The notes under the pieces are model-generated. The model did not search any database, had not been told where the DNA came from, and worked only from the letters and a program-made list of their open reading frames with translations. From Paenibacillus turpanensis (GTDB lineage Bacteria; Bacillota; Bacilli; Paenibacillales; YIM-B00363): a stretch of DNA of 64,000 nucleotides. Within the stretch, counting starts at the first letter, position 1. Each line of letters begins with the position of its first letter. A program made the position numbers and the translations under genes. The stretch spans positions 42,232 through 106,231 of the forward strand of contig NZ_WTLI01000007.1 of the NCBI RefSeq assembly GCF_011421635.1. Direction: 5' to 3'. Positions 17,860 through 36,060 of the stretch are shown in pieces.

Positions 17860-17865
17860 TACTGA

Positions 17866-18071: not shown

Positions 18072-19193
18072 GTGGCCGGTAATATTACAAAAGTCGGGAC
18101 AAAATTCAGGGTAACCTTCGATTTCGGAAGAGACAGTTCAGGGAAACGAATCAGACAATATACTACTGCCTCGTCCGAAGCAGAAGCCAAGAAGCTGCTG
18201 AATGAATTTGAGTATAATCAGCAGCGCAACCTACTCGTCCAGACATCTAAAATGACCTTTGCCGAGTTTTTGGAACACTGGATGGACAACTACGTGAAAT
18301 ACAACTGTGAAGAAACAACCAAGTACTCCAATGAAAACATCATTTATAATCATGTGGTTCCCTATCTCGGGGCCATCGAACTTCAGAAGCTTCAGCCGGC
18401 ATTTATTCAACAATACTACAAGCATCTGATGGATGACAAGGGCTTGAAACCGAACACAGTACATAAGCATCATGCATGTATTCGCAAGGCGTTGGATTAC
18501 GGACTGAAGCAGCAGTTCGTACACAGGAACGTATGTGACGCGGTCACACTACCCAAGAAAGAGCGCTTTGTTGGTCAATCCTATACCAGAGATCAGCTGA
18601 ATAGACTGCTTGATGCCGTCAAGGATACAAGGCTGGAGCTGCCGGTACATCTCGCCGGGTATTTGGGCTTGAGAAGAGAAGAAATCATGGGGCTACGATG
18701 GAAATACGTTGATCTTGATGAGAGGCTTATTCATATCGTAGAGGTTCGTACCTGTGCGGGCAGCCAAGAGGTTGTGAAGACTCCAAAGACGGAGAGAAGC
18801 AGAAGAGTACTCTATATTACAGATGAGCTGCTGGAGGTTCTCTTAAAGGTAAAGGAGCGGCAGGAAGCGAACAGACGTATTCTGGGCGACGAATATTTTG
18901 ATAGTGACTACGTATACGTTCAAGATAACGGCAAGCTTTATCGGGTGAATTCTGTGACGGAACGGTTTAAGGAGTTTCTGGAAAAGAACAACTTCCCGAA
19001 AATCAGGCTTCACGATTTGAGGCATACCTTCGCAAGCATCCTGTACGATGCGGGGATTGATTTGAAGGCCATCTCGGAGGCGCTGGGGCATTCCGATCTA
19101 GGGACAACCAACAAAATCTATACCCATCGGTTCGATAAGACGCATAAGAAGACTGTATCAGCAATGAGCCAGGCGCTGGGAAGACGGAACTGA
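18072..19193 (+). CDS. int: Tyrosine-type site-specific integrase (phage integrase family)
   Basis: 373 aa. N-terminal SAM-like domain, C-terminal catalytic domain with LRHTFAS...GHSDL...IYTH. GTG start with GAGGTGG RBS. Confidence 0.9.
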   Translation: MAGNITKVGTKFRVTFDFGRDSSGKRIRQYTTASSEAEAKKLLNEFEYNQQRNLLVQTSKMTFAEFLEHWMDNYVKYNCEETTKYSNENIIYNHVVPYLGAIELQKLQPAFIQQYYKHLMDDKGLKPNTVHKHHACIRKALDYGLKQQFVHRNVCDAVTLPKKERFVGQSYTRDQLNRLLDAVKDTRLELPVHLAGYLGLRREEIMGLRWKYVDLDERLIHIVEVRTCAGSQEVVKTPKTERSRRVLYITDELLEVLLKVKERQEANRRILGDEYFDSDYVYVQDNGKLYRVNSVTERFKEFLEKNNFPKIRLHDLRHTFASILYDAGIDLKAISEALGHSDLGTTNKIYTHRFDKTHKKTVSAMSQALGRRN

Positions 19194-20028: not shown

Positions 20029-20787
20029 ATGGAAATTACTCAACCTAATAGACCCAAGAGAAATGATTTCAGTAAAACAACTACTTTAAAATTAGTAAAA
20101 CGTGCCGGTGCCATGTGTTCCAATCCAAAATGCAAAATACTAACGTTTGGTGCTGTTGATAATGAAAATGAATCATACGATGTTGGTGAAGCTGCACATA
20201 TTCATGCTGCCTCAAAAAATGGGCCACGATACAATAAAGAATTATTAAAGTCTTATGTTACAAGTTTAGAAAACGGGATTTGGCTGTGTAGTAATTGCCA
20301 TGATATGGTTGACACTGCCTTTGAATCGTACTCAGCAGAATTGCTTAGGAAATGGAAAAATGACCATGAAGAAGAAATGAAAAAATACGGCGGGAAAAAG
20401 ATACTTAAAACAAACGATGAAAGTCTAGCAAAATTAATCATAAGCAAATATGAAAATACTGGTGCGTTGTATTTATTAGAAGAGGCTGAAAACCCCCACT
20501 TTGTAATAGATTCATTCATAAAAATGAGGCATGATCTCGTTGAATGGCAAAGCGAAAAGTATTCACCATCCATTGAGTTTAAAAAACACTTGAAGAAGAT
20601 GGCGACAGCACTTCAAAAGTTCTGTAATAATCCAGATAATGACTTGACTAAAAAGGGGAATTGTATTTTTGAAAATATCTTAAATTTTAGAAAAGAATAT
20701 GGCTTATATATAAAGTGGATAGTTGAAACATACAAAATTGAAGTAGAAGCTAGTTTGCAGTCAATTTTTTTGGAAGCAGAAGTCTGA
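20029..20787 (+). CDS. HNH-nuclease-domain protein with unknown C-terminal domain (AT-rich cargo gene A)
   Basis: N-terminal C-x4-C ... AAHIHAASKNG ... N ... WLCSNCHDMVD motif. About 160-aa C-terminal region of unknown fold. GC about 30%. Confidence 0.6.
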   Translation: MEITQPNRPKRNDFSKTTTLKLVKRAGAMCSNPKCKILTFGAVDNENESYDVGEAAHIHAASKNGPRYNKELLKSYVTSLENGIWLCSNCHDMVDTAFESYSAELLRKWKNDHEEEMKKYGGKKILKTNDESLAKLIISKYENTGALYLLEEAENPHFVIDSFIKMRHDLVEWQSEKYSPSIEFKKHLKKMATALQKFCNNPDNDLTKKGNCIFENILNFRKEYGLYIKWIVETYKIEVEASLQSIFLEAEV

Positions 20788-20855
20788 ATCCCGTAAATGA
20801 TTGGCAATTTATTTTGCAAAAAATGAATTTTACTCAAAGTTAAGATTGCGCCGAA

Positions 20856-21674
20856 ATGGGAGAAGACATGAGTTCAAGAAAAAAAATACCTCAAGATGTA
20901 GAAACAGATGTTTTAATAAAATCAAAAAGAAGATGTTGTTTGTGTTTTGGTATTCAAAATGACCTTGATGAAAAGAATGGCCAGATTGCCCATATTGATA
21001 AAAATAGAGATAATAATAACTTTGATAACCTAGCTTTCTTATGTTTTAATCATCATGACAAATACGATGCAGTTACTAGTCAAAGTAAAAACTATACAAA
21101 AAATGAGGTTAAAAGATATAGGGATGATTTATACGGATATTATGAAAAACTCTATGATAATGACATAAGTAATAATGATTTTCTTGATTACTTAAATAAA
21201 ACAATTAGAATTACTTCGGAAAGACATGAGGTAAAAGATAATAAAGTTATAGTAACAGTAGATAACCTTGAATTGATGAATTCTAAAACAATTGAACTGG
21301 AGTTATGGAATGATGGTAAATACGAATTAGTAATAAATAAAATCATTATGCAGAATAAACTCCCGTTCCATTATAGTAGTGAACATTGGACTCCCCTTCC
21401 CTTTAAAGGATCCGATAAAGACAATACTTTTACGTCAATTAGATACATAAACAATCATTTTCATGGTTTTGAAATAGAAAGTAATAAGTATATCAACTTA
21501 TATTATAATTTCCCACAATTAAGGATAGGCTTTGCAAAGAAAGTGTACACCTTTCAATTTGATTTTTTGGTAGACATCACCATACCCTCGAAATCATTCA
21601 ATTATAAAATAACGGATGTTTCAAGAGAAGTCATGAAAACCATTTATTTTGATTTTGTTCTAAATGACGATTAA
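20856..21674 (+). CDS. HNH-nuclease-domain protein with unrelated unknown C-terminal domain (AT-rich cargo gene B)
   Basis: RRCCLCFG ... QIAHIDKNRDNNNFDNLAFLCFNHHDKYD. The internal ATG at 20868 has a GGGAGAAG RBS and is the likely true start. C-terminal 180 aa unrelated to gene A. Confidence 0.6.
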   Translation: MGEDMSSRKKIPQDVETDVLIKSKRRCCLCFGIQNDLDEKNGQIAHIDKNRDNNNFDNLAFLCFNHHDKYDAVTSQSKNYTKNEVKRYRDDLYGYYEKLYDNDISNNDFLDYLNKTIRITSERHEVKDNKVIVTVDNLELMNSKTIELELWNDGKYELVINKIIMQNKLPFHYSSEHWTPLPFKGSDKDNTFTSIRYINNHFHGFEIESNKYINLYYNFPQLRIGFAKKVYTFQFDFLVDITIPSKSFNYKITDVSREVMKTIYFDFVLNDD

Positions 21675-21774
21675 CTTAATTCTGGGATATTAAATATTTA
21701 GTGTAATATAAATTATAAAGAAATAACATAAATTCATAATATAGGTAATACGTGTGTGATCATAGAGACTGTAA

Positions 21775-23126
21775 AATATTTTGTGTAAACTCTCAAAACC
21801 AAATCTAGTAAACTAGAAGAAAGGTCGGTTTGAGAGGATGACACAAGTGGCACGGTTTAGCAAGGAACAGGTAAAAGTATTCGTTAAAGAAAACAACCTG
21901 AAGACCATGGATGACGTACAATCTGCACTCAAGGAATTGTTTGCAGAGACGCTTCAGTCCATGCTGGAAGCCGAACTCGACACGGAACTCGGTTACGAGA
22001 AGCACGATGTGAAGAGCAAGGTGACCGCTAACAGCCGCAACGGCAAAACGAAAAAGACCGTCATTAGCGAATATGGTGAAGTGGAGATCCAAGTTCCGCG
22101 TGATCGTAACGGTGAGTTTGAGCCCATGATCGTGAAGAAGCATCAGTCGAATGTGACGGGGATCGAGGACCAGATTATCGCCATGTACGCCAAGGGTGTA
22201 AGTACACGCGACATCCAAGACCATCTGAACCGGCTCTACGGTATTGACGTCTCTCCTACGATGATCTCAAACGTAACCAACAAGATCGTACCTTTGATCA
22301 AGGAGTGGCAGAATCGCCCGTTGCAAGGCGTATATGCCGTTGTGTTCCTGGATGCCATTCACTTTAAGGTCAAGCAGGACGGAGCGATTGTGAACAAGGC
22401 GGCCTACATGGTCATCGGGATTGATCTGGATGGCAACAAGGACGTGTTGGGCATGTGGATTGGCGAGAATGAGTCCGCCAAGTTCTGGCTCAGCGTTCTT
22501 AACGATCTCAAAAACCGCGGCGTACAAGACATCCTCATCACATGTGTAGACAACCTGACGGGCTTCTCTCAAGCGATTATTGCCTGCTATCCGAAGACCG
22601 AGATCCAGAAGTGTATTATCCACCAAATCCGAAATTCCACGCGGTACGTGTCCTACAAGGACTTAAAGAGGGTTACTGCCGACTTAAAGCCGATCTATAA
22701 AGCCGCTACAGAAGAGGCAGCCTTGGTCGAACTGGATCGTTTCGAAGAGGCATGGGGAACCAAGTACCCGCTCATTATCCGCTCCTGGCGTAACAATTGG
22801 GACGAGCTTGCTACGTTCTTCAAATATCCCCCAGAGATCCGGAAACTCATCTATACGACCAACATCATTGAGAGTTACCATCGCCAACTCCGCAAAGTCA
22901 CCAAAGGAAAAAGCATCTTTCCCTCCGACGAAGCGTTGTGGAAGATGCTCTATCTGTCCACCATGGATGTGGTTCGGAAATGGACGGGCCGGGTTCAGAA
23001 CTGGGGACAAATGCTGTTACAGCTGTCCGTCTTTTTCCCCGATCGGGTCGGTCAACATTTACGGTAGGTAGGCCAACTCCCCCTCCCCGGGGGAGTTCCC
23101 TATAAATGAGTTTACACAAAATTATT
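21775..23126. mobile_element. IS256-family insertion sequence
   Basis: Single mutator-type transposase. Terminal inverted repeats AATA-TTTTGTGTAAACTC (left) and GAGTTTACACAAAA-TTATT (right), a 14-bp perfect core. About 1.35 kb, typical for IS256. No clean 8-bp target-site duplication was resolved. Confidence 0.8.
21838..23067 (+). CDS. IS256-family transposase (mutator type)
   Basis: 409 aa. Conserved IS256 transposase layout with a DDE region. Confidence 0.92.
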   Translation: MTQVARFSKEQVKVFVKENNLKTMDDVQSALKELFAETLQSMLEAELDTELGYEKHDVKSKVTANSRNGKTKKTVISEYGEVEIQVPRDRNGEFEPMIVKKHQSNVTGIEDQIIAMYAKGVSTRDIQDHLNRLYGIDVSPTMISNVTNKIVPLIKEWQNRPLQGVYAVVFLDAIHFKVKQDGAIVNKAAYMVIGIDLDGNKDVLGMWIGENESAKFWLSVLNDLKNRGVQDILITCVDNLTGFSQAIIACYPKTEIQKCIIHQIRNSTRYVSYKDLKRVTADLKPIYKAATEEAALVELDRFEEAWGTKYPLIIRSWRNNWDELATFFKYPPEIRKLIYTTNIIESYHRQLRKVTKGKSIFPSDEALWKMLYLSTMDVVRKWTGRVQNWGQMLLQLSVFFPDRVGQHLR

Positions 23127-23170
23127 GACAGACCCTGATCATATAATTTGATTACTTGGCTTATATAAAT

Positions 23171-23200
23171 CCACAAGCGATAATGCTTGTGGATTTTTTG
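23171..23200 (+). terminator. Hairpin terminator just outside the IS256 right end
   Basis: CCACAAGC-gataat-GCTTGTGG followed by ATTTTTTG. Confidence 0.5.
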
Positions 23201-23213
23201 TTCAAGCCCCCTT

Positions 23214-23236
23214 CGTAATACTTTCACCATGTTCGT
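23214..23236 (+). repeat. 23-bp direct repeat, copy 1 (in the hen1 upstream region)
   Basis: CGTAATACTTTCaCCATGTTCGT. Copy 2 at 30935-30957 differs at one position. A shared GATATCGTT 9-mer follows both at different distances. Confidence 0.6.
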
Positions 23237-23290
23237 CAGCATATATCTAAGGTAAGATATCGTTAACAAGTAGATTAGGAGTCGATCCAT

Positions 23291-24556
23291 ATGGCAATCG
23301 TCCAAATCAGATCCACCAATCCGCAGTTTTCATTTTTGATCAAGAAAAATCCGAACACTGGCATGCAGCTTCGCTCGATCCGCAGGGGCATGGCGTACGG
23401 CTGGTACACGGATGAACAGACGTATAACGTGTATTTCAAAGATGCGGACAATGAGATTTCCTATAAACAGCACGAAAATGACAACTTCGAATATCTGAAC
23501 GTGTCGAGGTACAATACACCCTTGTTTCCGCTGAATGCAATTAATGAATTTTTCTCTGCACCGCTTAAGGCACAAGACGAACGTGATGGTGACGGCTATG
23601 AACATACCTTTTTCATCAATATGATACATATCGAACTCGTCCGGTATATTGACTACTTCGAAAAGCATCTCAAGGATTTCACTTTCGAAATCACTCATCA
23701 TGCGCATAAGAGCTACTCTCTCACCGTTACGACGCAGAAGAGTCTATACCAATTGCTCCATGTGGTTAGTGTATTATGCTTATTCCTCTCTATGTTCGGA
23801 AACGAATATATCGATATCTCGGAAAGCATCCTGGATAAGTACATTAAGAGCATGAATGTGATAGATGCGCCGTTTTATATTCGCAGCCTGTTTGTACGAA
23901 ACTTCCTGAACTCCAGAGACCGGTTTCAAAAATACAAAGCGGAGCTTGAGAAAACGGGACGCTATGAAATTCGATTCGCATACGGTGGCACAGCGCTGCA
24001 GCGGAGAAATTATATCGGAAGCGTGCTGGCTTTTGATAAGTCGATCTTGGACGTGGGCTGCGGAGAAGGATTCTATGCGATTCCTTTTGCGGGGAAAATT
24101 GAAGGCAGCTATTATGCGGTTGACGTTAATGAGGAGCTGCTGGAGAAGGTACAGCGTAAAGCGGAGGCCAAAGAGATCGATAACATCGTTACATTCGGCT
24201 CAATTGACCAATTCCTGGAGAGCTACAACGGGGAGCAGGTTGATGTGATCCTGACCGAGGTTATCGAACATATGAGCCAGGATGAGGCTAAACAGCTGAT
24301 TCACCAGATTTGTACTCATGTTGATTTTGACAGATTCATCATTACGACGCCTAATGCCGACTTTAACCGCTTCTACGAGCTGAGCGACTTCCGGCATGAT
24401 GATCACAAGTGGGAAATGGGCCAAGAGGCGTTCCAACATTGGATGCAAGATGTCATCCATGATACGAATTTACATGCCGAATTTGTTGCTGTCGGGGACG
24501 GCGTGAACAATATTCAAACTACACAGGGTGTTATTCTCAAGAAAAGGGGGGCCTGA
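23291..24556 (+). CDS. hen1: Bacterial Hen1-type RNA 3'-terminal 2'-O-methyltransferase
   Basis: 421 aa. C-terminal class I SAM methyltransferase (ILDVGCGEGFY, AVDVNEELL, ILTEVIEHM). N-terminal domain of about 240 aa. Adjacent to Pnkp with a 3-nt gap, the hallmark Pnkp/Hen1 pairing. Confidence 0.8.
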   Translation: MAIVQIRSTNPQFSFLIKKNPNTGMQLRSIRRGMAYGWYTDEQTYNVYFKDADNEISYKQHENDNFEYLNVSRYNTPLFPLNAINEFFSAPLKAQDERDGDGYEHTFFINMIHIELVRYIDYFEKHLKDFTFEITHHAHKSYSLTVTTQKSLYQLLHVVSVLCLFLSMFGNEYIDISESILDKYIKSMNVIDAPFYIRSLFVRNFLNSRDRFQKYKAELEKTGRYEIRFAYGGTALQRRNYIGSVLAFDKSILDVGCGEGFYAIPFAGKIEGSYYAVDVNEELLEKVQRKAEAKEIDNIVTFGSIDQFLESYNGEQVDVILTEVIEHMSQDEAKQLIHQICTHVDFDRFIITTPNADFNRFYELSDFRHDDHKWEMGQEAFQHWMQDVIHDTNLHAEFVAVGDGVNNIQTTQGVILKKRGA

Positions 24557-24559
24557 TCG

Positions 24560-27145
24560 ATGGATATCCAAACGAAGGTTCACACGATTTTCATGCTGGT
24601 TGGGTCAACGGAATGCGGCAAAACAACGTTCGCTAAGGAGGTACTGATTCCCGGTCTGCGATTTGAGGATATTAACCGGGGTGTCAGGGCCAATGTACAA
24701 TATTTATCCTCAGACCAGATCCGACAGGAGGTCCTTGGGTATGAGTATGACAAGTACGATCAGGTCATGCTCGAGGCTAGCGAACAAGCCTTTCACCTTT
24801 TATTTGAAAGATTGAGGATGACGACGTCTTTTCCGATCAATGCAGAGTTTGTTGTCGTAGATACAACTGGGCTCTCCGAGGATTTCCGGGCTAAGGTAAA
24901 GGAAATTGCATTTCAGAACAACTATAACCTTGAGGTCATCGTCTTCGATTACCGAAAGCGGGAAGATTACTATGCGTCGGAGCGCTCCAAGAAACTGATC
25001 ACCAATCACATCAATAGGCTGAAAAAGGAGGTCCTCCGCACGCTGCCCCGCGAGGGATACGGCAAGATTCATAAAGTGCGTGCAAAAGACTTTTATGTGG
25101 CCGAGGAGAGAAGGGCGAATCCCGAGTATAAAGTGATCACCGAAGATGTGGATGCGTACTTGGCGAGTATTCTCCCCCAGGACCAGCAGTACATTATAAT
25201 CGGTGACGTTCACGAATGTGTGGAGGATCTGAAGGGGCTGCTGCTCGACCATGGTTACAAGATCGAAGCAGGAAAGCTGGTCGTGGCTGATAAGCTGAAG
25301 CATACGAAGCTGATTTTGGTTGGCGACTGGATTGACAAGGGCAAGCAGACGAGGGAAACCGTCGAGTTTCTGTATGATAACCAAGAACATTTTTACTTTG
25401 TGCTTGGGAACCATGAAAATTTTGTTAGCAAGTACATCAAGGGTGAGATTAGCAGTGTTGATCAAGAGCTGCTCGAAACGTATTTTGACTCGACGCAAAT
25501 ATTACTGAATGATCCTGAACTGCTGCAGAAATTTGAACATCTAGTCTCGATCTCGAAGCCATTTTATCGGTATGTTGGGGCCAGGGGGTCATCCTTCTAT
25601 GTCACTCACGCTCCATGCCGGAACAAGTACATCGGTAAGCTGGATACGAATTCGGTCCGGCATCAAAGGAATTTCCGAATCGACCGGGATGCTCCACTGG
25701 AGGAGCAGCTTGTTTTTCTTCAGGAGGAATCGGTCAAAAACCATCCCTATCACATTTTCGGACACGTCGCGGCAAAACAGTCTTTCCGGATCGGAAATAA
25801 GCTTCATATCGACACGGGCAGCGTACATGGCAATCTCTTGACCTCTGTCTCGATTTCGTATAAACCGTTTATGAAGTCTCATAAGTCCAGACAAGCGGTG
25901 ATTACCGAGGAGCTGCAAACCTTATTTAAAGTGGAACGAAAGGTCTCCATTCAAGATCTTGGGGAGGATGACATCCGCCGACTCCACTACTGCTCGCGTA
26001 ATAAAATCAATTTCATCTCCGGCACGATGTCTCCGGCGGATAAGAACGACGAGACGAATGAACTCGAGTCGCTGAAGCGAGGTCTTGATTATTTCCGGGA
26101 GCACGGTGTTCAGCAGGTGGTGCTGCAGCCGAAGTATATGGGATCCCGATGCAACGTGTATCTGCATAAGGACCTGGATCAGTGTTATGCTGTCAGCCGC
26201 AATGGTTATAAGATTAACCAAGTCGATTTGACGGAGATTTACGGCAAGCTGCTTCATAAATTCGGTGAGTATATGGAACAACGGAAGATTGCCATGCTCA
26301 TTCTGGATGGAGAGCTTCTGCCGTGGAAGGCGCTCGGTGAAGGGTTGATCGATAGACAGTTCAAGCCCATTGAGAAAGCGCTGGAGACCGAGTTGACCTT
26401 TCTGCAGCTACACGGCTTTGAAGAAGCATACAACAAGCTTATTGCCAAATACGAAGCAAGCGGATTTGAAAAGGACCAGCATCATATCGGAAAATCCGCC
26501 TTAAGCGAGAAGTATGGTCCAAGTGTGTACCAAAACTATAAGTACGTCCATGAGATTCAGGACACGTATGTCCCGTTGTCGGGGCATATGGAGGCCTATC
26601 AAACGTACAGAAGACAGCTGGAGCTGTATGCAGAAGATGAAGCAATGACGTATAAGCCGTTTGCCTTATTAAAGATCGTATATGAGGACGGGATCGAAGA
26701 AATTCCGGCATGGAAGACCTCCGAGATGTACGGATTTCTGTCGGAGGACGTGGGACCTGTACTGGATCTCTCCGAGCCGGGGTATCTGGAGCAGGCGGAG
26801 CTTTACTTTTCGAAGCTGACGATGGAGAACCATATGGAGGGGATCGTAATCAAGCCCGAGCTGTGGAACGGTAAAACGGTGCCTTATATGAAGGTGCGAA
26901 ATCCCGATTATTTGTCCATCATCTATGGGTACGACTACAAGTTTCCGCACAAGTACCGAAAGCTGCTCAAGCAAAAGAATGTGAATCAAAAGCTTCGTAC
27001 CTCGCTTAATGAGTACCAGCTGGGAATGCAAATGCTGGCGGTGCCATTGGATGAGATTGCGCCTGAGCATGTTGCCTATAAGGAGATCGCTGCTAATCTC
27101 TTGTTTGAAGTTGCACAGGAGCGGGAGATCGATCCGCGTTTATAA
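24560..27145 (+). CDS. pnkp: Polynucleotide kinase-phosphatase-ligase (Pnkp) of the Pnkp/Hen1 RNA repair system
   Basis: 861 aa, tri-domain. N-terminal P-loop kinase GSTECGKTT. Central calcineurin-type phosphoesterase with GDVHEC, GDWIDKG and GNHEN. C-terminal adenylyltransferase/ligase-like domain with a candidate motif-I lysine in PKYMGSR. Size matches Clostridium-type Pnkp at about 870 aa. Confidence 0.85.
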   Translation: MDIQTKVHTIFMLVGSTECGKTTFAKEVLIPGLRFEDINRGVRANVQYLSSDQIRQEVLGYEYDKYDQVMLEASEQAFHLLFERLRMTTSFPINAEFVVVDTTGLSEDFRAKVKEIAFQNNYNLEVIVFDYRKREDYYASERSKKLITNHINRLKKEVLRTLPREGYGKIHKVRAKDFYVAEERRANPEYKVITEDVDAYLASILPQDQQYIIIGDVHECVEDLKGLLLDHGYKIEAGKLVVADKLKHTKLILVGDWIDKGKQTRETVEFLYDNQEHFYFVLGNHENFVSKYIKGEISSVDQELLETYFDSTQILLNDPELLQKFEHLVSISKPFYRYVGARGSSFYVTHAPCRNKYIGKLDTNSVRHQRNFRIDRDAPLEEQLVFLQEESVKNHPYHIFGHVAAKQSFRIGNKLHIDTGSVHGNLLTSVSISYKPFMKSHKSRQAVITEELQTLFKVERKVSIQDLGEDDIRRLHYCSRNKINFISGTMSPADKNDETNELESLKRGLDYFREHGVQQVVLQPKYMGSRCNVYLHKDLDQCYAVSRNGYKINQVDLTEIYGKLLHKFGEYMEQRKIAMLILDGELLPWKALGEGLIDRQFKPIEKALETELTFLQLHGFEEAYNKLIAKYEASGFEKDQHHIGKSALSEKYGPSVYQNYKYVHEIQDTYVPLSGHMEAYQTYRRQLELYAEDEAMTYKPFALLKIVYEDGIEEIPAWKTSEMYGFLSEDVGPVLDLSEPGYLEQAELYFSKLTMENHMEGIVIKPELWNGKTVPYMKVRNPDYLSIIYGYDYKFPHKYRKLLKQKNVNQKLRTSLNEYQLGMQMLAVPLDEIAPEHVAYKEIAANLLFEVAQEREIDPRL

Positions 27146-27152
27146 TCGTGAT

Positions 27153-27192
27153 AGAGTGTCTGAGCCATTCTGTGGTTCAGGCACTTTTTTTC
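27153..27192 (+). terminator. Candidate terminator after pnkp (imperfect)
   Basis: GTGTCTGAGCC-loop-GGTTCAGGCAC followed by T7. Two stem mismatches. Confidence 0.4.
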
Positions 27193-27305
27193 GTTGCGGA
27201 ACGTTTGGGTAAGAATTAATTATTCCCATCTTCAGGGCAAAAGGTAAAGGTATAATGAAATTACTAGAAGACGGGAATAAGTTCTACAGGAAGAGAAGTG
27301 TAGCC

Positions 27306-27899
27306 ATGTTAAATCAAGCAGTTGAAAAAAGCTTAAGTAAATTCATGACCAAGATTCTTCGGCATACCCCTGAGGATTTTGGTGTTGTCCTAGATCCCGT
27401 GGATGGTTCGTGTCCGCTAAGCACTTTGCTGGAAGTCATCCAAGCCCAATCTCAATGGGGGTGGGTGAAAAAGGAACATATCGAACAGGTGGTACGCCAT
27501 TCGGATAAGCAGCGCTTTGAGATCGAAGGCGACCGCATAAGAGCCAGGTACGGCCACAGTCATAATAAAGTGCAATACACACCGGGCGTGCCTCCAGAGT
27601 ACGTCTACCATGGCACAAACAAGAAAGCCCTCCCATTGATCTTGAAGGATGGCATACGTCCGATGAGCCGTCAGTATGTTCATTTGTCGGAAGGCACCCA
27701 TTTTGCAGCACTCGCGGGCAGCCGCAGAGGCGAACTGGTGATTCTTAAGGTAGACACCGTAAGCGCACAGCAGCTGGGAGTCACGTTTTATTATGCGGGT
27801 AACGAAGTGTGGTTGGCTAATAGCGTGCCGCCAGGTTGTTGCTCCGTGATGGATAACAAGGAAAAGGAGCACTCAAATCATGAATCATTCAATTATTGA
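27306..27899 (+). CDS. kptA: RNA 2'-phosphotransferase (Tpt1/KptA family)
   Basis: LSKFMTKILRHTPEDFG, HGT..., YVHLSE motifs co-linear with E. coli KptA. Start at 27306 chosen by alignment to KptA's N-terminus and an AGGAAGAG RBS. The ORF track's longer alternative begins at 27255. Confidence 0.85.
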   Translation: MLNQAVEKSLSKFMTKILRHTPEDFGVVLDPVDGSCPLSTLLEVIQAQSQWGWVKKEHIEQVVRHSDKQRFEIEGDRIRARYGHSHNKVQYTPGVPPEYVYHGTNKKALPLILKDGIRPMSRQYVHLSEGTHFAALAGSRRGELVILKVDTVSAQQLGVTFYYAGNEVWLANSVPPGCCSVMDNKEKEHSNHESFNY

Positions 27900-28668
27900 T
27901 ATCGGCATCAATTTGATGCATCGTACATTCCATCAAGATCGTGATCAGGTCGTCGAAAGGGCACTGGACAACCATGTGACACCTCTTATCATTACAGGGA
28001 CAAGTTTGAGGAGCAGTCTAGAAGCAGCACGCTACGCCGGACGGTACCCGGAAAAGCTGTACGCTACTGCAGGAGTTCATCCTCATGATGCGAAGAACTG
28101 CAACGAGGAGACCATCGCGAAGCTGAAAGAATTGGCGGCATTACCGCAGGTTGTAGCCATCGGCGAATGCGGGCTGGATTATAACCGGGATTTCTCGCCG
28201 CGGGATGTTCAGCGCAAATGGTTCACGGAGCAGGTTCAGTTGGCGGTGGAGCTTAAAATGCCGCTGTTTCTGCATGAGCGGGAGGCTTTTTCAGACTTTG
28301 TTGCAATCCTAAAGGATAACGCGGTTCAAAAAGCGGTCGTTCATTGTTTTACGGGAACCTATGCAGAGCTTAAAGCTTACCTAGAAATGGGCTTCCATAT
28401 TGGCATTACCGGATGGATTTGTGACGAACGAAGAGGGAAGCATCTGAGGGACCTTGTCCGAATGATTCCGCTCGACAGGCTGATGATCGAGACGGATGCC
28501 CCCTTTCTGACTCCGCGGGATCTAAAGGAAAAGCCAGCGGAGGGACGGAACGAGCCTGCATTCCTGCCGCACATTCTGCAAACCGTAGCAACATGCATCG
28601 GCAGACCCGTGGAAGAGGTTGCTAAAGCGACAACGGAGACTTCAGTGGACTTTTTCGGTCTTTCGTGA
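27880..28668 (+). CDS. tatD: TatD-family metal-dependent hydrolase/nuclease
   Basis: 262 aa. HxH start (MHRTFH), VHPHDAK, GECGLDY, ETDAPF. Overlaps the kptA 3' end by about 20 nt, implying translational coupling. Confidence 0.85.
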   Translation: MNHSIIDIGINLMHRTFHQDRDQVVERALDNHVTPLIITGTSLRSSLEAARYAGRYPEKLYATAGVHPHDAKNCNEETIAKLKELAALPQVVAIGECGLDYNRDFSPRDVQRKWFTEQVQLAVELKMPLFLHEREAFSDFVAILKDNAVQKAVVHCFTGTYAELKAYLEMGFHIGITGWICDERRGKHLRDLVRMIPLDRLMIETDAPFLTPRDLKEKPAEGRNEPAFLPHILQTVATCIGRPVEEVAKATTETSVDFFGLS

Positions 28669-28698
28669 TCACAAGAGGAAGTTCAAAGGAGGACAGGA

Positions 28699-29943
28699 GT
28701 GCGATTAAATCAATTTCGTTATGATTTGGCCCGCGGGTTAGGGAGCGTCATGCTTTACTTGAAGCAATCTCCCAGACTCGCTAATAAGCATATTGATGCT
28801 ATATATCATGCTTGTATCAAGAATACCGCTTATGACCCCCAATGTGATATAAGCAGGGAAGATTATCTTTGGGAGATCATTCAGCTCTCCGAAGAATCCG
28901 AACAGCTACAAAAACGGATACTCGCCGCCTTGGAGAGCGATATAGATGGTTGGGATTTGCTGCAGGTATACCGCTTAGCGAAAATTTTTGCCCTTAAAAG
29001 TCATTCAACAGCAGTAGAAGCCATGAAGAAAGGATTCCGTTACCACGAAGATTGGAACAGCTTCATTGGCGGGGAAGAGATCATAGCGGTTGAAGGGGAG
29101 CAGGGCTTCTTGTTTGTGGCAAGCCGAATTGGGGAGCAAATATTGTCCTCCGACTATGAGGAGAGTAAATTTCTGCTGGAGTTCGCATATGAAAAAATAG
29201 GGGAAGAAAAGGTGACGGCTCTCCTTGAGAGCCAAGGTGATGCGAATATTCAGGCATTCGTGCAATCGTCAGTCCACCAGCAAGAATATACCCAATCGAA
29301 GCCGCTTCACATAGTGTCTTACAATGAGTTGAAGTCGACCATAGGAACGGGATCTGGAGGTCTATATCGCTACACCAGATGGGGGAAGCATGCCTCTAAA
29401 GAAGATCTGTTAAAGGCAGCTAACGATCTGCTGCAAGAGAGTAATTCAAAAATACTATTGCCCTATCTCTATATCTTCGCCAAAGCGGTTTTCCCGCTTG
29501 ATCCACAAAAGCTAATTGAATTAGCGGGTTCGAAAAATAGGCGTTTGCGCTCGCAGGCCATTAGAGTCCTAAGTAATATTAAGGATGAGCGGATCCACAA
29601 GCTTGCGATTAAGCTTGCCACGGAGCGGGCAACTGAAATTGATGCATTGGACCTTTTTATCCACAATTGTTCCGATGAAGACGTACACCTATTCGAGCAA
29701 ATTGTTTTCAAGAATCATAGTAGGGATACGTTTCATAGTGCTGGGTTCAGCATTCTTAAAATATTCGAAAATAACCGAACTCCATTATGCCGGAAGATTC
29801 TAATTGAACTTTATAAGAAGGCACTTTGCACCTTTTGTCGACAGCGCAGTGTAGAAATCATGGTACTAAATGGCATACTGCCGGATTCTATTCAAAATGA
29901 AATCCTGCACGATTGTAATCCGGATATTCGTGTCTTGGGATAA
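28699..29943 (+). CDS. Hypothetical alpha-helical (HEAT/ARM-like?) protein in the RNA repair cassette
   Basis: 414 aa, no recognisable catalytic motifs. GTG start with AAGGAGGA RBS, 30 nt after tatD. Lower GC than neighbours. Confidence 0.6.
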   Translation: MRLNQFRYDLARGLGSVMLYLKQSPRLANKHIDAIYHACIKNTAYDPQCDISREDYLWEIIQLSEESEQLQKRILAALESDIDGWDLLQVYRLAKIFALKSHSTAVEAMKKGFRYHEDWNSFIGGEEIIAVEGEQGFLFVASRIGEQILSSDYEESKFLLEFAYEKIGEEKVTALLESQGDANIQAFVQSSVHQQEYTQSKPLHIVSYNELKSTIGTGSGGLYRYTRWGKHASKEDLLKAANDLLQESNSKILLPYLYIFAKAVFPLDPQKLIELAGSKNRRLRSQAIRVLSNIKDERIHKLAIKLATERATEIDALDLFIHNCSDEDVHLFEQIVFKNHSRDTFHSAGFSILKIFENNRTPLCRKILIELYKKALCTFCRQRSVEIMVLNGILPDSIQNEILHDCNPDIRVLG

Positions 29944-29982
29944 GAAGCACAAACGCCGGGCTTCCATGACCGGCGCATTTAC

Positions 29983-30270
29983 TTATTTTCTTCTATAGTA
30001 CCTTTCCCAATCTTGAATGACTTCTGCTTTATTCAATAACCGCTTCCTCAGGCACTGGGATGTTTCCCATTCATGTATTGCTTGCTGCTTTGTTTTGAAA
30101 AAGCGATAGTCACAGATATTCCAGGAGCAGAACAGCTTTCGGTACCATTTACCGTTTTGGACATTACCAGTGAAACGGCGAACAGCCTTATTTGCTTGTC
30201 GTTTGCTCCAGCGGGTGCCGGGTGTATGATGGTCTTTCCATGCGGGTGATTTTTTCACACTATTACTCAT
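29983..30270 (-). CDS. Hypothetical small basic protein
   Basis: 95 aa. AAGGAGGGG RBS 8 nt upstream on the minus strand. No recognisable family. Confidence 0.45.
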   Translation of the reverse strand: MSNSVKKSPAWKDHHTPGTRWSKRQANKAVRRFTGNVQNGKWYRKLFCSWNICDYRFFKTKQQAIHEWETSQCLRKRLLNKAEVIQDWERYYRRK

Positions 30271-30934
30271 TTGGCTCTCTAACCCCTCCTTACGGGAAGC
30301 TAGAGACCGTCTAATTTCTTCATTTACTCACCTCATCCAGAGTATAATGGCTTTTGAAAGTATTAAACGCTAACCATGAATATATGTTTCTTAGTGGATT
30401 TGTCTATAATGATTCTTTACTAACACTGGTCACAAGATATAGTACGATTTAGTTGGATTTTTTATGGAGGAAAGTGCATGAGGTTCCTATTTTGTTTTCA
30501 TTGACCTTTATCCTTTTCATCCATACTTTACTCCTCCAAGTTACGAAGATAGCTCTTTGTCGGCCGTAACAACCCCATAACGTTCCAAAGTTTTCGTCTA
30601 TGCTTCGAGCATTCTCCTCCTCAAATGATTACCCTCGATAACCCGAACCAGAACCCGATTCCCGTGAAAACGGATTTCTTCAGTCGGTTGCTCATAAAGG
30701 CTTGATACCGGGTGTGATACCGGAGCAAATACCATACCTGTTTGATCATGGAGTGTAGCAGCATAACTGCTGCCGATTGAAAGCACCGCTTGTCAGCATC
30801 AGCATCCGCAGGAACTGGATTTGTTTATCAAAAGCTCTCCTCTCCTTAACCAAAAGAATTATCCGCCCAAAATACATTTTCTTCCATTTTGATAGGGGTG
30901 GGATTTGGGTGAAATGGAAAAGTTTATGCCGCCT

Positions 30935-30957
30935 CGTAATACTTTCGCCATGTTCGT
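30935..30957 (+). repeat. 23-bp direct repeat, copy 2
   Basis: CGTAATACTTTCgCCATGTTCGT, 22 of 23 identical to 23214-23236. Together the two copies bracket the hen1-pnkp-kptA-tatD-orf414 block. Confidence 0.6.
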
Positions 30958-31107
30958 TCCGGTAGAAAGGTGCGATTATAGAACCTGTAAGACACAAGGT
31001 TCTTATTCGGACGGTCGTAACGAGGCAGGGATATCGTTGTATCCCGCAGTGCCGTGCCTGTTAGGCTGCGGTATCCTGTACAATCGGATCGGATGGAGTC
31101 CACTATT

Positions 31108-31131
31108 TGGGGTTCGATTCCCCACTCGCCT
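31108..31131 (+). repeat. attR-like imperfect copy of the tmRNA T-arm and acceptor 3' end
   Basis: tGGGGTTCGATTCCCCaCTCGCCT versus tmRNA aGGGGTTCGACTCCCC-TCGCCT. A T-loop sequence TTCGATT is present, but no matching 5' acceptor strand upstream, so it is not a full tRNA. It is followed at about 31141-31170 by a tRNA-Lys-like D-loop and anticodon-arm fragment (TGGTAGAGCACTCGACTTTCAATCGAG). Confidence 0.5.
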
Positions 31132-31442
31132 TTGACGCGATTCTGGTAGAGCACTCGACTTTCAATCGAGCGAAAAAGTTGAAGAAGGACCAAAGGATAG
31201 AATCCCTGGCGGCTAGCATATGCGCACTGCAGCTCAGCCATGTAATCCGTGGATACCGATGAGCGGAACGCCGAAGACTTTTTTGGGATGGAAGAGACAA
31301 AAGGTTGGCTGAACGAGGGTCAATCTTCTGAACCCGATGTCCTTCAAAAACACCGTCAGACCGCTTATCTCAAACGGGATTCCGCCGGAGCTGCAGTGGG
31401 ATTCTTTCATCCAATGGTCAAATCATGAAGGGGGTAACAAAG

Positions 31443-32558
31443 ATGTTTAACCAAGTAACCATTCAAGCCGACCAGCGCGGTTTACTCTTTCATAAAGGAA
31501 GCTATGTGAAAAAGCTCAATCCGGGGACCTACCGCTACTTAGCGTGGTCGCAAAATACCGTTGTCGTGCTGAATATCACGAAACCGTTCGTTGTAGAGGG
31601 AAAAGAGCTGCAATTGTTTTTTCAAGATGAAGACCTGGTGCGGGAGCTCGACATCGTACGGGTGCAGGACCACGAGTACGTGCTCCATTACGAGGACGGC
31701 CAATTCGTGCAGCTGCTTAAGCCTGGCACCTACGCCTACTGGAACATACTGAAGAAGCATACGTTCCTGCATGCGGATATTCGAAACCCCGAGCTGCCTG
31801 TCGGGGTAGACCGCTCGATCCTTCCGAAGCTTGCAGTCCACGTGCAGTCTTGCGAAATCGCAAGCTACGAGTCCGGATTTTTGTTTTACGATCATGTTCT
31901 GCAGCGGGAGCTTACTCCCGGCAGGTACTACTTTTGGAAAGGACCCGTTTCGGTTATGGTCAAGTCGGTTGATGGAAGACAGCAGCAAATGGATCTCGTT
32001 GGTCAGGAAATCATGACGGAAGACAAGGTCACGCTGCGCCTGAACTTCGTCTGCCAATACAAGATCGTGAACCCTTTACGAAGCTTGGAAATGAAATCGT
32101 TCGAGGAGCAGATCCACATCCAGCTTCAGCTCATGCTTCGGGAGTATGTCGGAACGCTGAAATTAGATGACCTCTTGAAACGGAAAGAGGACGTAGCATC
32201 CTTCGTCTTGTCCCGTTTACGTGAGAAGGGGGAAGAGTTTGGTGTGCAGTTCCTGAGCGCGGGAGTTAAGGATGTTATTTTGCCGGGGGAAATGAAAGAG
32301 ATCCTAAACACGGTCTTGCTGGCGGAGAAAAAAGCCCAGGCGAACCTCATCACCCGCCGGGAAGAAACGGCCTCGACTCGAAGTCTGCTGAACACGGCTA
32401 AGCTGATGGACGAGAACCAGACGCTCTTCCGTTTGAAGGAGCTGGAGTTCCTCGAGAAAATGTGCGAGAAAATCGGCTCTATCTCTGTAACGGGTGGCGG
32501 AGACCTGTTGGAGCGGTTAAGCTCCCTCATTGGGGAGAAAAGGGCGGCAAGTAAATAA
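31443..32558 (+). CDS. SPFH/Band-7 (slipin-like) domain protein with a novel N-terminal triple-repeat domain, no TM anchor
   Basis: C-terminal 200 aa resemble SPFH proteins (VTLRLNFVCQYKIVNP, AEKKAQANLI..., LKELEFLEKM coiled region). The N-terminal 190 aa contain three L-x-PG-T/R-Y-x-Y/F modules. GGGGG RBS before the ATG at 31443. Confidence 0.7.
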   Translation: MFNQVTIQADQRGLLFHKGSYVKKLNPGTYRYLAWSQNTVVVLNITKPFVVEGKELQLFFQDEDLVRELDIVRVQDHEYVLHYEDGQFVQLLKPGTYAYWNILKKHTFLHADIRNPELPVGVDRSILPKLAVHVQSCEIASYESGFLFYDHVLQRELTPGRYYFWKGPVSVMVKSVDGRQQQMDLVGQEIMTEDKVTLRLNFVCQYKIVNPLRSLEMKSFEEQIHIQLQLMLREYVGTLKLDDLLKRKEDVASFVLSRLREKGEEFGVQFLSAGVKDVILPGEMKEILNTVLLAEKKAQANLITRREETASTRSLLNTAKLMDENQTLFRLKELEFLEKMCEKIGSISVTGGGDLLERLSSLIGEKRAASK

Positions 32559-32586
32559 AGGAGATCGAATCGGCTGTTGGTGCTGA

Positions 32587-32718
<132 letters not shown>

Positions 32719-32796
32719 ATGAGCGGGATCATAAGCTGCGTGAGGCAAAAGGATTGTAGAAGAAGTGAATGATTGATGGATACAGGAGTTGATCTT

Positions 32797-34023
32797 ATGG
32801 CTTATCAAACGATAAACGGCGTTCGTGTCTGGGGGAACCCAGACGACGGAGCAATGACTCAAGCTAAGACATGTGCAGAACACGGTAATGTGGTTCAGAC
32901 CCTTCTCATGGCGGATCATCATAAAGGGTACAGCCAGCCGATCGGTGGGGTCGTGGTCTATGACGGGCAGATTTCCCCATCCGGCGTTGGGTATGATATC
33001 GCTTGCGGGAATAAGGCAGTGCGCACCTGCTTGACCGCAGCAGATGTAAAACCCAAATTGAATAAGGTGATGGATGAGATTGCCCGCAGAATATCTTTTG
33101 GCGTGGGACGCGTTAACAATGAAAAGGTGGACCATGAGCTTTTTGATGATCCGGATTGGGACGTTTATAAGGCGGTAGGCAAGCAGGAGCATAACAAGCT
33201 GAAGGCATTGGCGCGAGACCAGCTCGGAACAGTCGGAAGCGGTAACCACTTCGTAGACCTGTTTGTGGAAATGGAAACAGGCCGATTGTGGATTGCCAAC
33301 CACTTCGGAAGCAGAGGGTTCGGACATAAAACAGCGAGCGGGTTTATCAACCTGGCTGCTGGTAGGAAGTTTCTCGCTAATGCCCCCGGGGAAAAGATGG
33401 ACCAAGCGCCTGTGCTGCTTGATCTTGGTAGTGAGCTGGGGGATATGTATTACCGGGCGATGAAGCTGGCGGGACGCTACGCTTATGCAGGACGGGATTA
33501 TGTGATCCGTCAGGTGTTAGACATTCTGGGGACGGAAGCCGACCTTGAAGTGCATAACCATCATAACTATGCCTGGAAAGAGGTGCATGACGGCAAGGAG
33601 GTCATGGTTGTGCGTAAAGGAGCGACCCCTTCTTCGCCAGGCCAGGTTGGTTTTATCGGTGGCAGCATGGGGGATATCTCCGTTATCGTCAAAGGGAAGG
33701 ACAGCGAAGAGAATCGGGACGCTTACTACAGCACCGTTCATGGAGCGGGACGGATCATGAGCCGGACTCAGGCAGCAGGAAAAATGAACTGGAAAACCCG
33801 CACCAGAAGCGGCGGCCAAATCAGTACAGAGCAGATGATGGAGGCCGTTCGGGGTTATGGTGTGGAGCTGCGTGGCGCAGGTACGGATGAGAGTCCGTTT
33901 GTATACCGGAAGCTTCAAGAGGTGCTTGATGCGCATGCCGAAACGATTGAGGTCCTGCATGTGTTGAAGCCTATCGGTGTTTGCATGGCCGGTGCGGATG
34001 AATTTGATCCGTACAAGGATTAA
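32797..34023 (+). CDS. rtcB: RNA 3'-phosphate/2',3'-cyclic phosphate ligase RtcB
   Basis: HHKGYSQPIGGV, GYDIACG, GSGNHF, HNHHNYAWKE and VHGAGR motifs. Start ambiguous between 32773, 32776 and 32797. Confidence 0.9.
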   Translation: MAYQTINGVRVWGNPDDGAMTQAKTCAEHGNVVQTLLMADHHKGYSQPIGGVVVYDGQISPSGVGYDIACGNKAVRTCLTAADVKPKLNKVMDEIARRISFGVGRVNNEKVDHELFDDPDWDVYKAVGKQEHNKLKALARDQLGTVGSGNHFVDLFVEMETGRLWIANHFGSRGFGHKTASGFINLAAGRKFLANAPGEKMDQAPVLLDLGSELGDMYYRAMKLAGRYAYAGRDYVIRQVLDILGTEADLEVHNHHNYAWKEVHDGKEVMVVRKGATPSSPGQVGFIGGSMGDISVIVKGKDSEENRDAYYSTVHGAGRIMSRTQAAGKMNWKTRTRSGGQISTEQMMEAVRGYGVELRGAGTDESPFVYRKLQEVLDAHAETIEVLHVLKPIGVCMAGADEFDPYKD

Positions 34024-34986: not shown

Positions 34987-35504
34987 TTTCCCCCTCCTCA
35001 AATTCATTGTAATAAATTTCATGCAATTTGTAAACTATTTATAACATAACGTAATTTATTTTACTCAAATGGCTTGTAATTTTGATTAGAAGCACTCCGG
35101 TGGGTGAATAGACTTTATCGTGGGTGGACGAATTCGACTTGGGTTTATGACGTTTGAAACTGAAAAAGAAAAAAGATGCCGTTGGAGGCACCTTTTAATA
35201 CTGAAGCCCAGACGCAAAATAAAACAAGCTAACCTGGTTACATAAAAGGCAGAAGCTTAATGACGCCTCCATAGTATAGACAGGTGCTTTTTATGAGATA
35301 GATATCAACTCAGGGTGATCTAACTTCAATAAAAAATTGCTAAGATAACTAAAGTGTGTTATGATAAATTTATTGAAATTTTGACCTGAACTCACATATT
35401 GTAGAGGGTTGTGATTTTAAATTCAGAACCTTGTACAATATGTGATTTTTTATTTTTACGAAAATGTAGAGGTCATGTAAATAAAAATTAGGAGGTAATT
35501 TTTT

Positions 35505-35705
35505 ATGCAAACAGGAACAGTTAAATGGTTTAACGCAGAAAAAGGTTTTGGTTTTATCGAGGTTGAAGGTGGCAATGACGTATTCGTTCATTTTAGTGCG
35601 ATTGTAAGTGATGGCTTCAAATCGCTAGATGAAGGTCAACGCGTTGAATTCAACGTGGTACAAGGCAATCGCGGTCCACAAGCTGAGAATGTTGTAAAGT
35701 TGTAA
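35505..35705 (+). CDS. cspA: Cold-shock protein (CspA family)
   Basis: 66 aa. [35 protein letters not shown]-rich leader of about 480 nt, typical of csp 5' UTRs. Confidence 0.95.
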
Positions 35706-35785
35706 ATTGATCAAAAGTCCCAAACGTCGCGTTTGGGATTTTTTATTTTCTGCCCGTAATTCTAAGAGAGAAAGAAGGATGCATC

Positions 35786-36023: not shown

Positions 36024-36060
36024 GGGGCTCAGGTGACATCAAATCTGTCCCTGCACCATA
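36024..36060 (+). repeat. Copy of an internal tmRNA segment (ssrA positions about 17765-17804)
   Basis: GGGGC..TCaGGTGACATCAAAtCTGTccCTgCACC versus tmRNA GGGGCgctgcTCgGGTGACATCAAAaCTGTgaCTaCACC. About 30 of 35 identical, allowing for a 5-nt gap. Highly unlikely by chance in 64 kb. Confidence 0.45.

Follow-up and report, generated by a model that had tools for sequence, protein, structure and literature searches.

Several shuffled clusters of bacterial RNA-repair genes are already known or predicted, among them the Pnkp/Hen1 system, RtcB, and the association of a Band-7 protein with a tRNA-like RNA and RtcB. This report concerns a group of such genes in Paenibacillus turpanensis, carried on a 64,000 nt stretch of contig NZ_WTLI01000007.1 (nt 42,232–106,231; 'the window', whose own numbering is used throughout), and a conserved 24 nt block that precedes two of its units. 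The bacterial Pnkp/Hen1 systems, including Pnkp1-Rnl-Hen1 of Capnocytophaga gingivalis (PDB 4XRP/4XRU), have the same gene adjacency and domain modules as the window. The window proteins form a divergent subfamily, however, with the block upstream and a tpt1-tatD-orf414 cluster downstream, past a terminator, and while the C. gingivalis Rnl is a separate protein, the similar ligase domain of the window is fused into Pnkp. The Rsr (Ro60)-YrlA-RtcB operons of Salmonella and other bacteria likewise carry a scaffold protein and a tRNA-mimic RNA with a loop-closed acceptor beside an RNA ligase, YrlA being a permuted tRNA mimic with a closed acceptor stem, but the scaffold here is SPFH rather than TROVE and no RtcR/sigma-54 control is evident. 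A cluster in Runella slithyformis (HD-Pnk, ligase, Tpt1, MTase-HIT; PMC6097658) also has Tpt1 next to healing and sealing enzymes and a methyltransferase, whereas here those enzymes are different ones and Tpt1 shares a separate transcription unit with TatD and a HEAT-repeat protein.

The right part of the locus matches the Band-7/b7a-tRNA/RtcB system, a prediction of Burroughs and Aravind (NAR 2016) which, according to the summary in bioRxiv 10.1101/312249, was without experimental validation as of 2018. As summarised there, and as in the window, an SPFH/Band-7 gene adjoins RtcB and RlaP with a tRNA-like non-coding RNA (ncRNA) beside them. The window keeps only a 150 nt remnant of the associated RlaP, a gene that 23 of 79 related loci have in intact form. 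The summary also describes an occasional swap with Ro60/YrlA, and both versions are found here under the same block. It states that the predicted RNA 'strongly resembles an authentic tRNA', whereas the best-supported fold here is a permuted mimic inside an RNA of ~310 nt rather than one standing by itself; the summary mentions neither the block nor the pair of WYL regulators described below.

The repair genes of the window are arranged as three transcription units and not as one module. Unit A, which has a terminator in front of it, consists of the block, hen1 and pnkp (3 nt apart) and a second terminator with a 16 bp stem; unit B carries tpt1, tatD and orf414; and unit C begins with the second copy of the block, followed by the ncRNA and the genes for SPFH and RtcB. 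A preliminary description of this DNA had proposed a composite RNA-damage response module. The coupling of hen1-pnkp with SPFH-rtcB is upheld by the shared block but a single module is not, given the terminator after pnkp, the separate TATAAT box of tpt1 and the lack of a block before unit B. Our preferred reading, with a probability of about 0.6, sees here a modular supercluster for RNA repair, of a kind found widely among Paenibacillaceae, and assigns units A and C to a single regulon that the block defines.

Copy 1 of the block, TCGTAATACTTTCACCATGTTCGT (nt 23,213–23,236, + strand), has an ATA 21–23 nt downstream at nt 23,257–23,259 and is the proposed promoter/operator of hen1-pnkp. Copy 2, TCGTAATACTTTCGCCATGTTCGT (nt 30,934–30,957, +), has the conserved ATA at nt 30,978–30,980. 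Both were located by sequence search and, when the whole window was searched with up to three mismatches, they were the only copies, both exact, where none is expected by chance. A survey of one genome per species, scanned with an SPFH alignment, returned 79 Paenibacillaceae loci that were analysed with 10 kb flanks. The block was present in 78 of them (≤4 mismatches), always in the orientation of the SPFH gene, although the proteins are just 68–93% identical, and a conserved AAAT..AGCGA..ATA lies ~20 nt downstream of it. Second copies precede Hen1 genes in the window and at six other loci, including those of Gorillibacterium and Gordoniibacillus. Scanning of metagenome contigs with the exact block pattern gave 35 sites and, wherever enough DNA was available, the block was followed by ncRNA-SPFH, Hen1-Pnkp, Pnkp, RlaP-RtcB, RlaP-Hen1-Pnkp, RtcB2-ncRNA-SPFH or YrlA-Ro60. 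At four of the Ro60 loci a YrlA-like RNA (Rfam RF02553, E ~1e-6) lies downstream of the block, followed by a Ro60/Rsr protein with TROVE and Ro60 vWA domains, and one contig then continues with RlaP and Hen1. Three genomes from the Paenibacillus chitinolyticus group also have the block, ~500 nt ahead of Ro60. No copy was found in viral contigs.

An intrinsic terminator (predicted hairpin and T-run, nt 23,167–23,196, +; conserved in the Gorillibacterium locus L001) ends 16 nt before copy 1, which places the start of transcription downstream of the block. This position after a terminator, the fixed spacing of the ATA and the distance of 25–90 nt from the block to the first downstream feature together make a promoter/operator the best reading, a function that we infer from position. 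The constant orientation of the block, always that of the downstream genes, and a conservation above the usual promoter level would also suit an element acting at the RNA level (a 5' leader, or a processing or protein-binding site), as would the absence of a match to a known sigma consensus in by-eye comparison. Such a role is nevertheless improbable. Copy 1 is preceded by a terminator and no sigma-70-like promoter was predicted upstream of it outside the terminator hairpin; the ATA element at fixed spacing resembles a −10 box; inspection revealed no complementary segment covarying with the block; and the sequences downstream (mRNA leaders, YrlA, tRNA-like RNA) are very different from each other. 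At some loci a protein gene (RtcB2 or DUF6847) comes directly after the block and the ncRNA only later, so that the block is separable from the RNA. The DUF6847 protein (154–177 aa) occupies this position in the Paenibacillus elgii group (L053, L054 and L061, nt ~8750–9285), as does an unannotated protein of 447 aa in Paenibacillus kobensis (L018, nt 6083–7426); either may be an additional regulon member. Paenibacillus sp. CCS19 (L024) has three copies of the block (nt 701, 2882 and 8423), each followed by a tRNA-like RNA, and its SPFH genes are duplicated.

The first gene of unit A, hen1 (nt 23,291–24,556, +), specifies the RNA 3'-terminal 2'-O-methyltransferase Hen1, in which the Hen1_N domain (PF22032, 3.4e-109) spans residues 3–223 and Pfam methyltransferase domains of the S-adenosylmethionine (SAM) type span residues 246–384. 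The adjoining pnkp (nt 24,560–27,145, +) combines AAA_33 kinase, Metallophos and PNKP_ligase (8e-32) domains in Pfam searches; the ligase domain is closest to the C. gingivalis Rnl (4xrp_B, 3e-55) and has the lysine motif KYMGS. A strong intrinsic terminator is predicted after pnkp (16 bp stem and T-run, nt 27,153–27,187, +). Both proteins fall far under the cut-offs of the NCBIfam equivalogs TIGR04074 and TIGR04075 (73.3 vs 340 bits and 179.4 vs 750 bits, respectively) and thus represent a divergent subfamily, whose family membership rests on domain architecture and gene pairing. With the Pfam matches situated where the preliminary description had put Hen1, Pnkp, Tpt1, TatD, SPFH and RtcB, its enzyme assignments are borne out; the profile scores of its 421 aa and 861 aa proteins are those just given for Hen1_N and PNKP_ligase, and its Tpt1 matched PF01885 at 3.2e-37. 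A search of the repair proteins with the PADLOC defence models returned generic domain matches only (TatD to QatD, and a generic methyltransferase match).

The SPFH gene of unit C is preceded, 3' of nt 30,300, by ~1.1 kb without a long open reading frame that holds the remnants of WYL genes, block copy 2 and the ncRNA. The remnants (nt 30,496–30,762, − strand), recognised by BLASTn against the Gorillibacterium loci L001 and L004, derive from two deleted WYL-domain regulator genes which in relatives code for intact proteins of 274 aa (WYL) and 437 aa (HTH-WYL-WCX; Pfam). The pair (L001, nt 15,693–17,817, −) is divergent from the block in 28 of the 79 loci, mostly in those that carry RlaP or RtcB, and is a candidate for the factor that reads the block; against this, the block is also present where no WYL gene is nearby. 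The two-protein layout resembles that of PafBC. No sequence relative of the WYL regulator was found among solved structures.

The SPFH/Band-7 protein (nt 31,443–32,558, +; Band_7 8.6e-21) is of the slipin family and has no obvious membrane segment; its homologues, which NCBI names slipin, number more than 7,900. No terminator was predicted between the ncRNA and the SPFH gene. The 3'-phosphate RNA ligase RtcB (nt 32,797–34,023, +; PF01139 6.2e-72) is encoded on the same strand, a pairing that is kept in relatives, and its motifs HHKGY, GYDIACG, GSGNHF, HFGSRGFGH and HGAGR align to those of Pyrococcus horikoshii RtcB (4dwr). Judging from homologue lengths and ribosome-binding sites, the two genes probably start at nt 31,443 rather than 31,425 and at nt 32,797 rather than 32,773. 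A truncated RlaP gene had been noted before rtcB, and the ~150 nt at nt 32,565–32,713 (+; PF10127) do match the start of the intact RlaP gene of Gorillibacterium. Relative to that genome, a clean deletion of 2166 bp (junction at nt 32,713/32,715) removed the rest of RlaP and a gene for a 527 aa protein. The latter (L004, nt 12,030–13,613) lies between RlaP and RtcB in Gorillibacterium and at a handful of further loci (four of 79), and belongs to no Pfam or NCBIfam family.

The ncRNA upstream of SPFH (nt 30,958–31,270, +; ~310 nt) was recognised from its conservation, seen in all 59 directly alignable loci, and from the covarying helices of its 5' domain: RNAalifold gave 39 pairs, 18 of them with compensatory changes. 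Folding of the single sequence was uninformative (z = −0.2). The RNA had no significant match in Rfam (tRNA, YrlA or any other family) or with ARAGORN, and the YrlA model RF02553 run on nt 30,930–31,430 returned nothing at E up to 10. Within it lies a circularly permuted tRNA-like domain (nt 31,108–31,171, +; covariance model, 87.9 bits, E = 5e-25) composed, in order, of a T-arm GGGGTTCGATTCCCC, a capped acceptor stem, a D-region and an anticodon-like hairpin. The acceptor-like stem is ATCGC, a loop of 5–8 nt and GCGAT; the D-region is a reduced D-arm with an invariant GG, which is represented by a canonical GCTCAGTGGTAGAGC arm in a distant clade; and the anticodon-like hairpin has 5 bp and a 7 nt loop, CUUUCAA here and CUUUUAA or CUUCCAA elsewhere. 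The T stem-loop, acceptor stem-loop and D stem-loop follow each other in the same order as in YrlA, but the closed anticodon-like hairpin is retained and the RNA is without an Rfam YrlA match.

Of 73 distinct sequences, 26 have U-A in place of C-G as the innermost acceptor pair; pairs of the T-stem and D-stem covary too. A covariance model of the domain, built from 14 sequences, found one copy ~310–350 nt upstream of SPFH in nearly every locus (35–95 bits), its sole other matches being weak ones to tandem true tRNAs and to the 3' end of tmRNA. In a covariation test, 96.3% of cells were paired, compared with 90.6% in shuffles and 31–54% in slid controls, and 11 of 15 pairs had changed on both sides, a value as high being reached in none of 500 shuffles; counting against these figures, the model served to fit the alignment, several pairs hardly vary and the loci are related. 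Two other pairings were considered. An open acceptor stem, formed by ATCGC with an upstream GCGAT, is rejected because covariation is absent from the upstream strand and seen in the downstream one (ATCGT paired with ACGAT in 26 sequences); block copies of the Hen1 type are likewise followed by this upstream GCGAT, which so belongs to the promoter-like unit. The long-range or pseudoknot pairings GCAGTGC-GCACTGC and GGTATCC-GGATACC are not supported, having uncompensated changes in distant loci, and these changes fit the local RNAalifold helix. In Gordoniibacillus kamchatkensis (L002, nt ~16,100–18,100) the block is followed by tRNA-like pieces (a T-arm, then GGAATAGCTCAGTTGGTAGAGC) that escape both ARAGORN and the covariance model; the SPFH gene is missing or degraded there, and the pieces may be a divergent version of the SPFH-associated RNA.

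Repair genes recur around SPFH in the surveyed loci. Within 10 kb of it were found the WYL pair (28 of 79), RtcB (27; 12 of a close and 15 of a distant type), RlaP (23), Hen1-Pnkp (12), Tpt1 (10), TatD (9) and orf95 (8), the expectation by chance for a single-copy gene in such a flank being ~0.3% of genomes. Hen1-Pnkp occurs upstream of the WYL pair, directly upstream of DUF6847-ncRNA-SPFH or downstream of SPFH; Tpt1, with or without TatD, occurs after Pnkp, adjoining the WYL pair or 2–8 kb downstream. The fullest comparison is with Gorillibacterium sp. sgz5001074 (L001 and L004; 84–92% nucleotide identity), where ssrA, an integrase and a protein kinase are followed by hen1, pnkp, tpt1, tatD and the orf414 homologue, then by several small genes, Macro, WYL (274 aa) and WYL-WCX (437 aa) and, divergently, by SPFH, RlaP, the 527 aa gene and RtcB. 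By comparison, little is left of either WYL gene in the window, and 0.5 kb stands in place of the segment containing Macro. Separate searches that set out from Tpt1 added three contexts. In Paenibacillus macerans, Hen1 and Pnkp are followed by three genes on the opposite strand and then by Tpt1, TatD and an ADP-ribosylglycohydrolase, and a second lineage with a different Hen1 subfamily has the order RlaP, Hen1, Pnkp, Tpt1 (L084). In Cohnella the Tpt1-TatD pair stands alone.

Unrelated repair genes might also have piled up at an ssrA hotspot as incidental cargo, without any functional or regulatory tie. In a close metagenome-assembled relative (L066) rnr, smpB and ssrA are followed by 3.7 kb of unrelated DNA and then by the WYL pair, SPFH, RlaP and cspA. 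Units A and B, replaced there, accordingly lie in a variable segment of island type, and unit C outside it; that segment is lower in G+C than its flanks, integrase, IS256 and HNH genes adjoin, and SPFH is near ssrA at only two of the 79 loci and in the window. Against a cargo origin, many species have the same families next to SPFH, at sites far from ssrA and in varying order, and the shared block, present before units A and C here, is found elsewhere mostly in front of repair cassettes. This alternative is largely refuted, and we regard it as very improbable. The recurrence of the linkage in many Paenibacillaceae and in varied gene orders argues against random island cargo, and the repair genes have the appearance of a co-ordinated set, not of a chance collection.

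Several points weigh against the supercluster reading. Because the 79 loci are phylogenetically related, independent events must be fewer than the counts suggest. Repair enzymes are missing from the neighbourhood of many SPFH loci, from which it follows that the constant core is the block, the ncRNA and SPFH, and that the enzymes are modular additions. Hen1-Pnkp occurs without the block in the P. elgii group, in P. macerans and in L084, hence the regulon is not universal. Compared by eye, the block fits none of the consensus sequences of LexA/Cheo, sigma-54, sigma-A, the extracytoplasmic function (ECF) sigma factors, sigma-D or the sporulation sigma factors. Unit B is split from unit A by a terminator and carries no block. 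Finally, the local copy is degraded: with the adjacent WYL regulators, most of RlaP and the 527 aa gene deleted, the system of P. turpanensis itself may be deregulated, silent or only partly functional.

The connection of unit B to repair is weaker than that of units A and C. Its first gene, tpt1 (nt 27,306–27,899, +), encodes a Tpt1/KptA RNA 2'-phosphotransferase whose motifs LRHTPE, RIRARYGHS and MSRQYVHLS, bearing the catalytic Arg-His-Arg-Arg (residue roles from PMC6097658), align to and are identical or nearly identical with those of a solved Tpt1 (9ld4_A, E = 1.5e-34). The identity of the gene had been recognised correctly, but the start giving a 194 aa protein is replaced by nt 27,306 (197 aa), which is the most likely start and that of the NCBI annotation; an alternative in-frame ATG upstream at nt 27,255 overlaps a perfect TATAAT box (nt 27,251–27,256), the promoter candidate of unit B. 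The start of tatD (nt 27,880–28,668, +; TatD-family metal-dependent nuclease/hydrolase, PF01026 1.7e-75 over the full length) overlaps the tpt1 stop by 20 nt. TatD passes the cut-off of TIGR00010 (215 vs 206 bits) and misses that of the Escherichia coli TatD equivalog (308 vs 395 bits). Situated 30 nt downstream, orf414 (nt 28,699–29,943, +) specifies a candidate scaffold of the HEAT/ARM alpha-solenoid type, assigned by fold-level similarity; it belongs to no Pfam family, and its fold relatives are generic HEAT/ARM solenoids that give no clue to function. The orf414 product is 100% identical to a hypothetical protein recorded for P. turpanensis, and just 19 relatives, nearly all from Paenibacillaceae, were found among 5.8 billion proteins.

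Homologues of orf414 follow Tpt1-TatD in Gorillibacterium and Gordoniibacillus, with a NADAR gene after it in the latter and the Macro gene ~4 kb downstream in the former. The preliminary description had made orf414 the partner of Tpt1-TatD, a role that the relatives contradict: it is not a fixed partner, its most constant neighbour being the convergent orf95 (nt 29,983–30,270, −), which encodes a small, very basic protein of 95 aa with no family found. The convergent pair occurs without Tpt1 in the three genomes of the P. chitinolyticus group (L121–L123), 3–4 kb from the Ro60 gene driven by the block, and orf95 homologues at the SPFH loci often adjoin Hen1-Pnkp or the block. A homologue of orf414 in Dictyobacter has an unrelated gene context. 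Two Tpt1 proteins, 86% and 72% identical to that of the window, are encoded on Gorillibacterium contig JBPPGJ010000010, so that the island copy is an extra one beside a resident copy.

Tpt1-TatD-orf414 could be independent of RNA end repair, serving for example NAD- or ADP-ribose-linked nucleic-acid modification or housekeeping, and have become a neighbour of Hen1-Pnkp through variable DNA. In line with this are the terminator and separate TATAAT box between pnkp and tpt1, the absence of the block upstream of any standalone Tpt1-TatD pair found, the wide occurrence of Tpt1 as a common chromosomal gene across Paenibacillus together with the solitary pair of Cohnella, the ADP-ribosylglycohydrolase, Macro and NADAR neighbours, and the orf414 homologues that occur without Tpt1. 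However, Tpt1 directly follows Pnkp in at least three operon types (the window and L001; L022; and L084 with its other Hen1 subfamily), 10 of the 79 loci have it, variously arranged, no more than 10 kb from SPFH, Hen1-Pnkp is only 2.4 kb from Tpt1-TatD in P. macerans, and the Runella cluster provides a precedent for Tpt1 among repair genes (PMC6097658). On balance we consider independence less likely than not.

If the supercluster reading is correct, the block and its downstream ATA would drive hen1-pnkp in unit A. Ribotoxins that act by transesterification leave 2',3'-cyclic phosphate and 5'-OH ends; from the established biochemistry of the families, Pnkp would heal and seal such ends and 2'-OH methylation by Hen1 would make the junction resist re-cleavage, while RtcB would seal them directly. 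In unit C the block would drive the ~310 nt ncRNA and then SPFH and RtcB and, by analogy with Ro60 and Y RNA, an SPFH oligomer with its tRNA mimic might assist or target resealing by RtcB. Unit B, with its own promoter, would be a mobile accessory cassette and, like unit A, would have arrived on an island inserted at ssrA. More speculatively, Tpt1 might strip 2'-phosphates at ends or junctions, TatD might trim ends or handle the ADP-ribose cyclic phosphate by-product, and orf95 and orf414 might be adaptors, the HEAT-repeat protein serving as a scaffold. The neighbouring genes for ADP-ribose processing (Macro, NADAR, ADP-ribosylglycohydrolase) fit the clearance of such a by-product without proving it. 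A more inclusive model is offered tentatively, and could well be wrong: a block-marked regulon of Paenibacillaceae would couple the interchangeable SPFH/permuted RNA and Ro60/YrlA pairs to RtcB, RlaP and Hen1-Pnkp, the WYL pair may exert control, and Tpt1-TatD, orf414 and orf95 would form a hitherto unrecognised accessory branch that removes 2'-phosphate or ADP-ribose adducts.

To our knowledge, and as far as the literature can be searched, four elements are new: the near-invariant block, by which Hen1-Pnkp, RlaP-RtcB, YrlA-Ro60 and ncRNA-SPFH cassettes are joined in a single putative regulon; the permuted structure worked out for the SPFH-associated RNA, together with its covariance model; the Tpt1-TatD cassette that recurs next to these systems; and the pairing of orf414 with orf95. 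They bear on the inducer of bacterial RNA repair, the substrate of bacterial Tpt1 and the role of SPFH with a tRNA-like RNA. The shared cis-element offers a handle for capturing the regulator, defining the regulon and building reporters of the RNA damage that may induce it; for the tRNA-like RNA there are now exact coordinates, a covariance model and a fold open to testing; and the repeated placement of Tpt1, with or without TatD, beside repair cassettes points to culturable organisms in which the role of bacterial Tpt1 can be approached genetically.

The mobile setting of units A and B is marked by the tmRNA gene ssrA (nt 17,498–17,862, +; ARAGORN, and Rfam RF00023 with 190 bits), the insertion point of the island, and by a tyrosine integrase directly 3' of it (nt 18,072–19,193, +; Phage_integrase 3e-27) that is 97% identical to the integrase at the same position in the Gorillibacterium locus L001. 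Together with the absence of the segment from a close relative, this identifies an ssrA-integrated island, the variable segment extending from 17.86 to 30.56 kb. An IS256-family element (nt 21,764–23,136, +; transposase nt 21,838–23,067, Transposase_mut 2.8e-118) has 29 nt inverted repeats at both ends and is missing from L001. Thus the tmRNA gene, integrase and IS256 of the preliminary description are confirmed, but its att-like repeats were not found in the window: no second match to the tmRNA 3' end that could serve as attR at the distal boundary was detected with up to three mismatches allowed. The T-arm-like sequence at nt 31,108 was considered as attR and excluded because it is part of the conserved RNA, being kept upstream of SPFH in ~77 loci without ssrA nearby. 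At nt 36,027–36,057 (+) lies a tmRNA-derived remnant that matches an internal part of ssrA (nt 17,773–17,803) at 26 of 31 positions and is without T-arm or acceptor part. It may be the relic of an older ssrA-linked insertion, in which case the whole of 17.9–36.1 kb would be an island array.

Two further genes of the island (nt 20,029–21,674, +) have a very low G+C content (30–33%). For the first, the PADLOC model PDC-M68A (6.5e-26) points to the HNH endonuclease effectors found in candidate defence systems, and HNH effectors of the CBASS type match as well; the second has weak HNH or homing-endonuclease similarity only. Beyond unit C, a match to the cspA thermoregulator at nt 35,363–35,745 (+), below threshold (41.5 bits against a gathering score of 78; E = 3e-8), covers a cold-shock protein gene (nt 35,505–35,705) and its leader, and the gene next to it is the cold-inducible YdjO.

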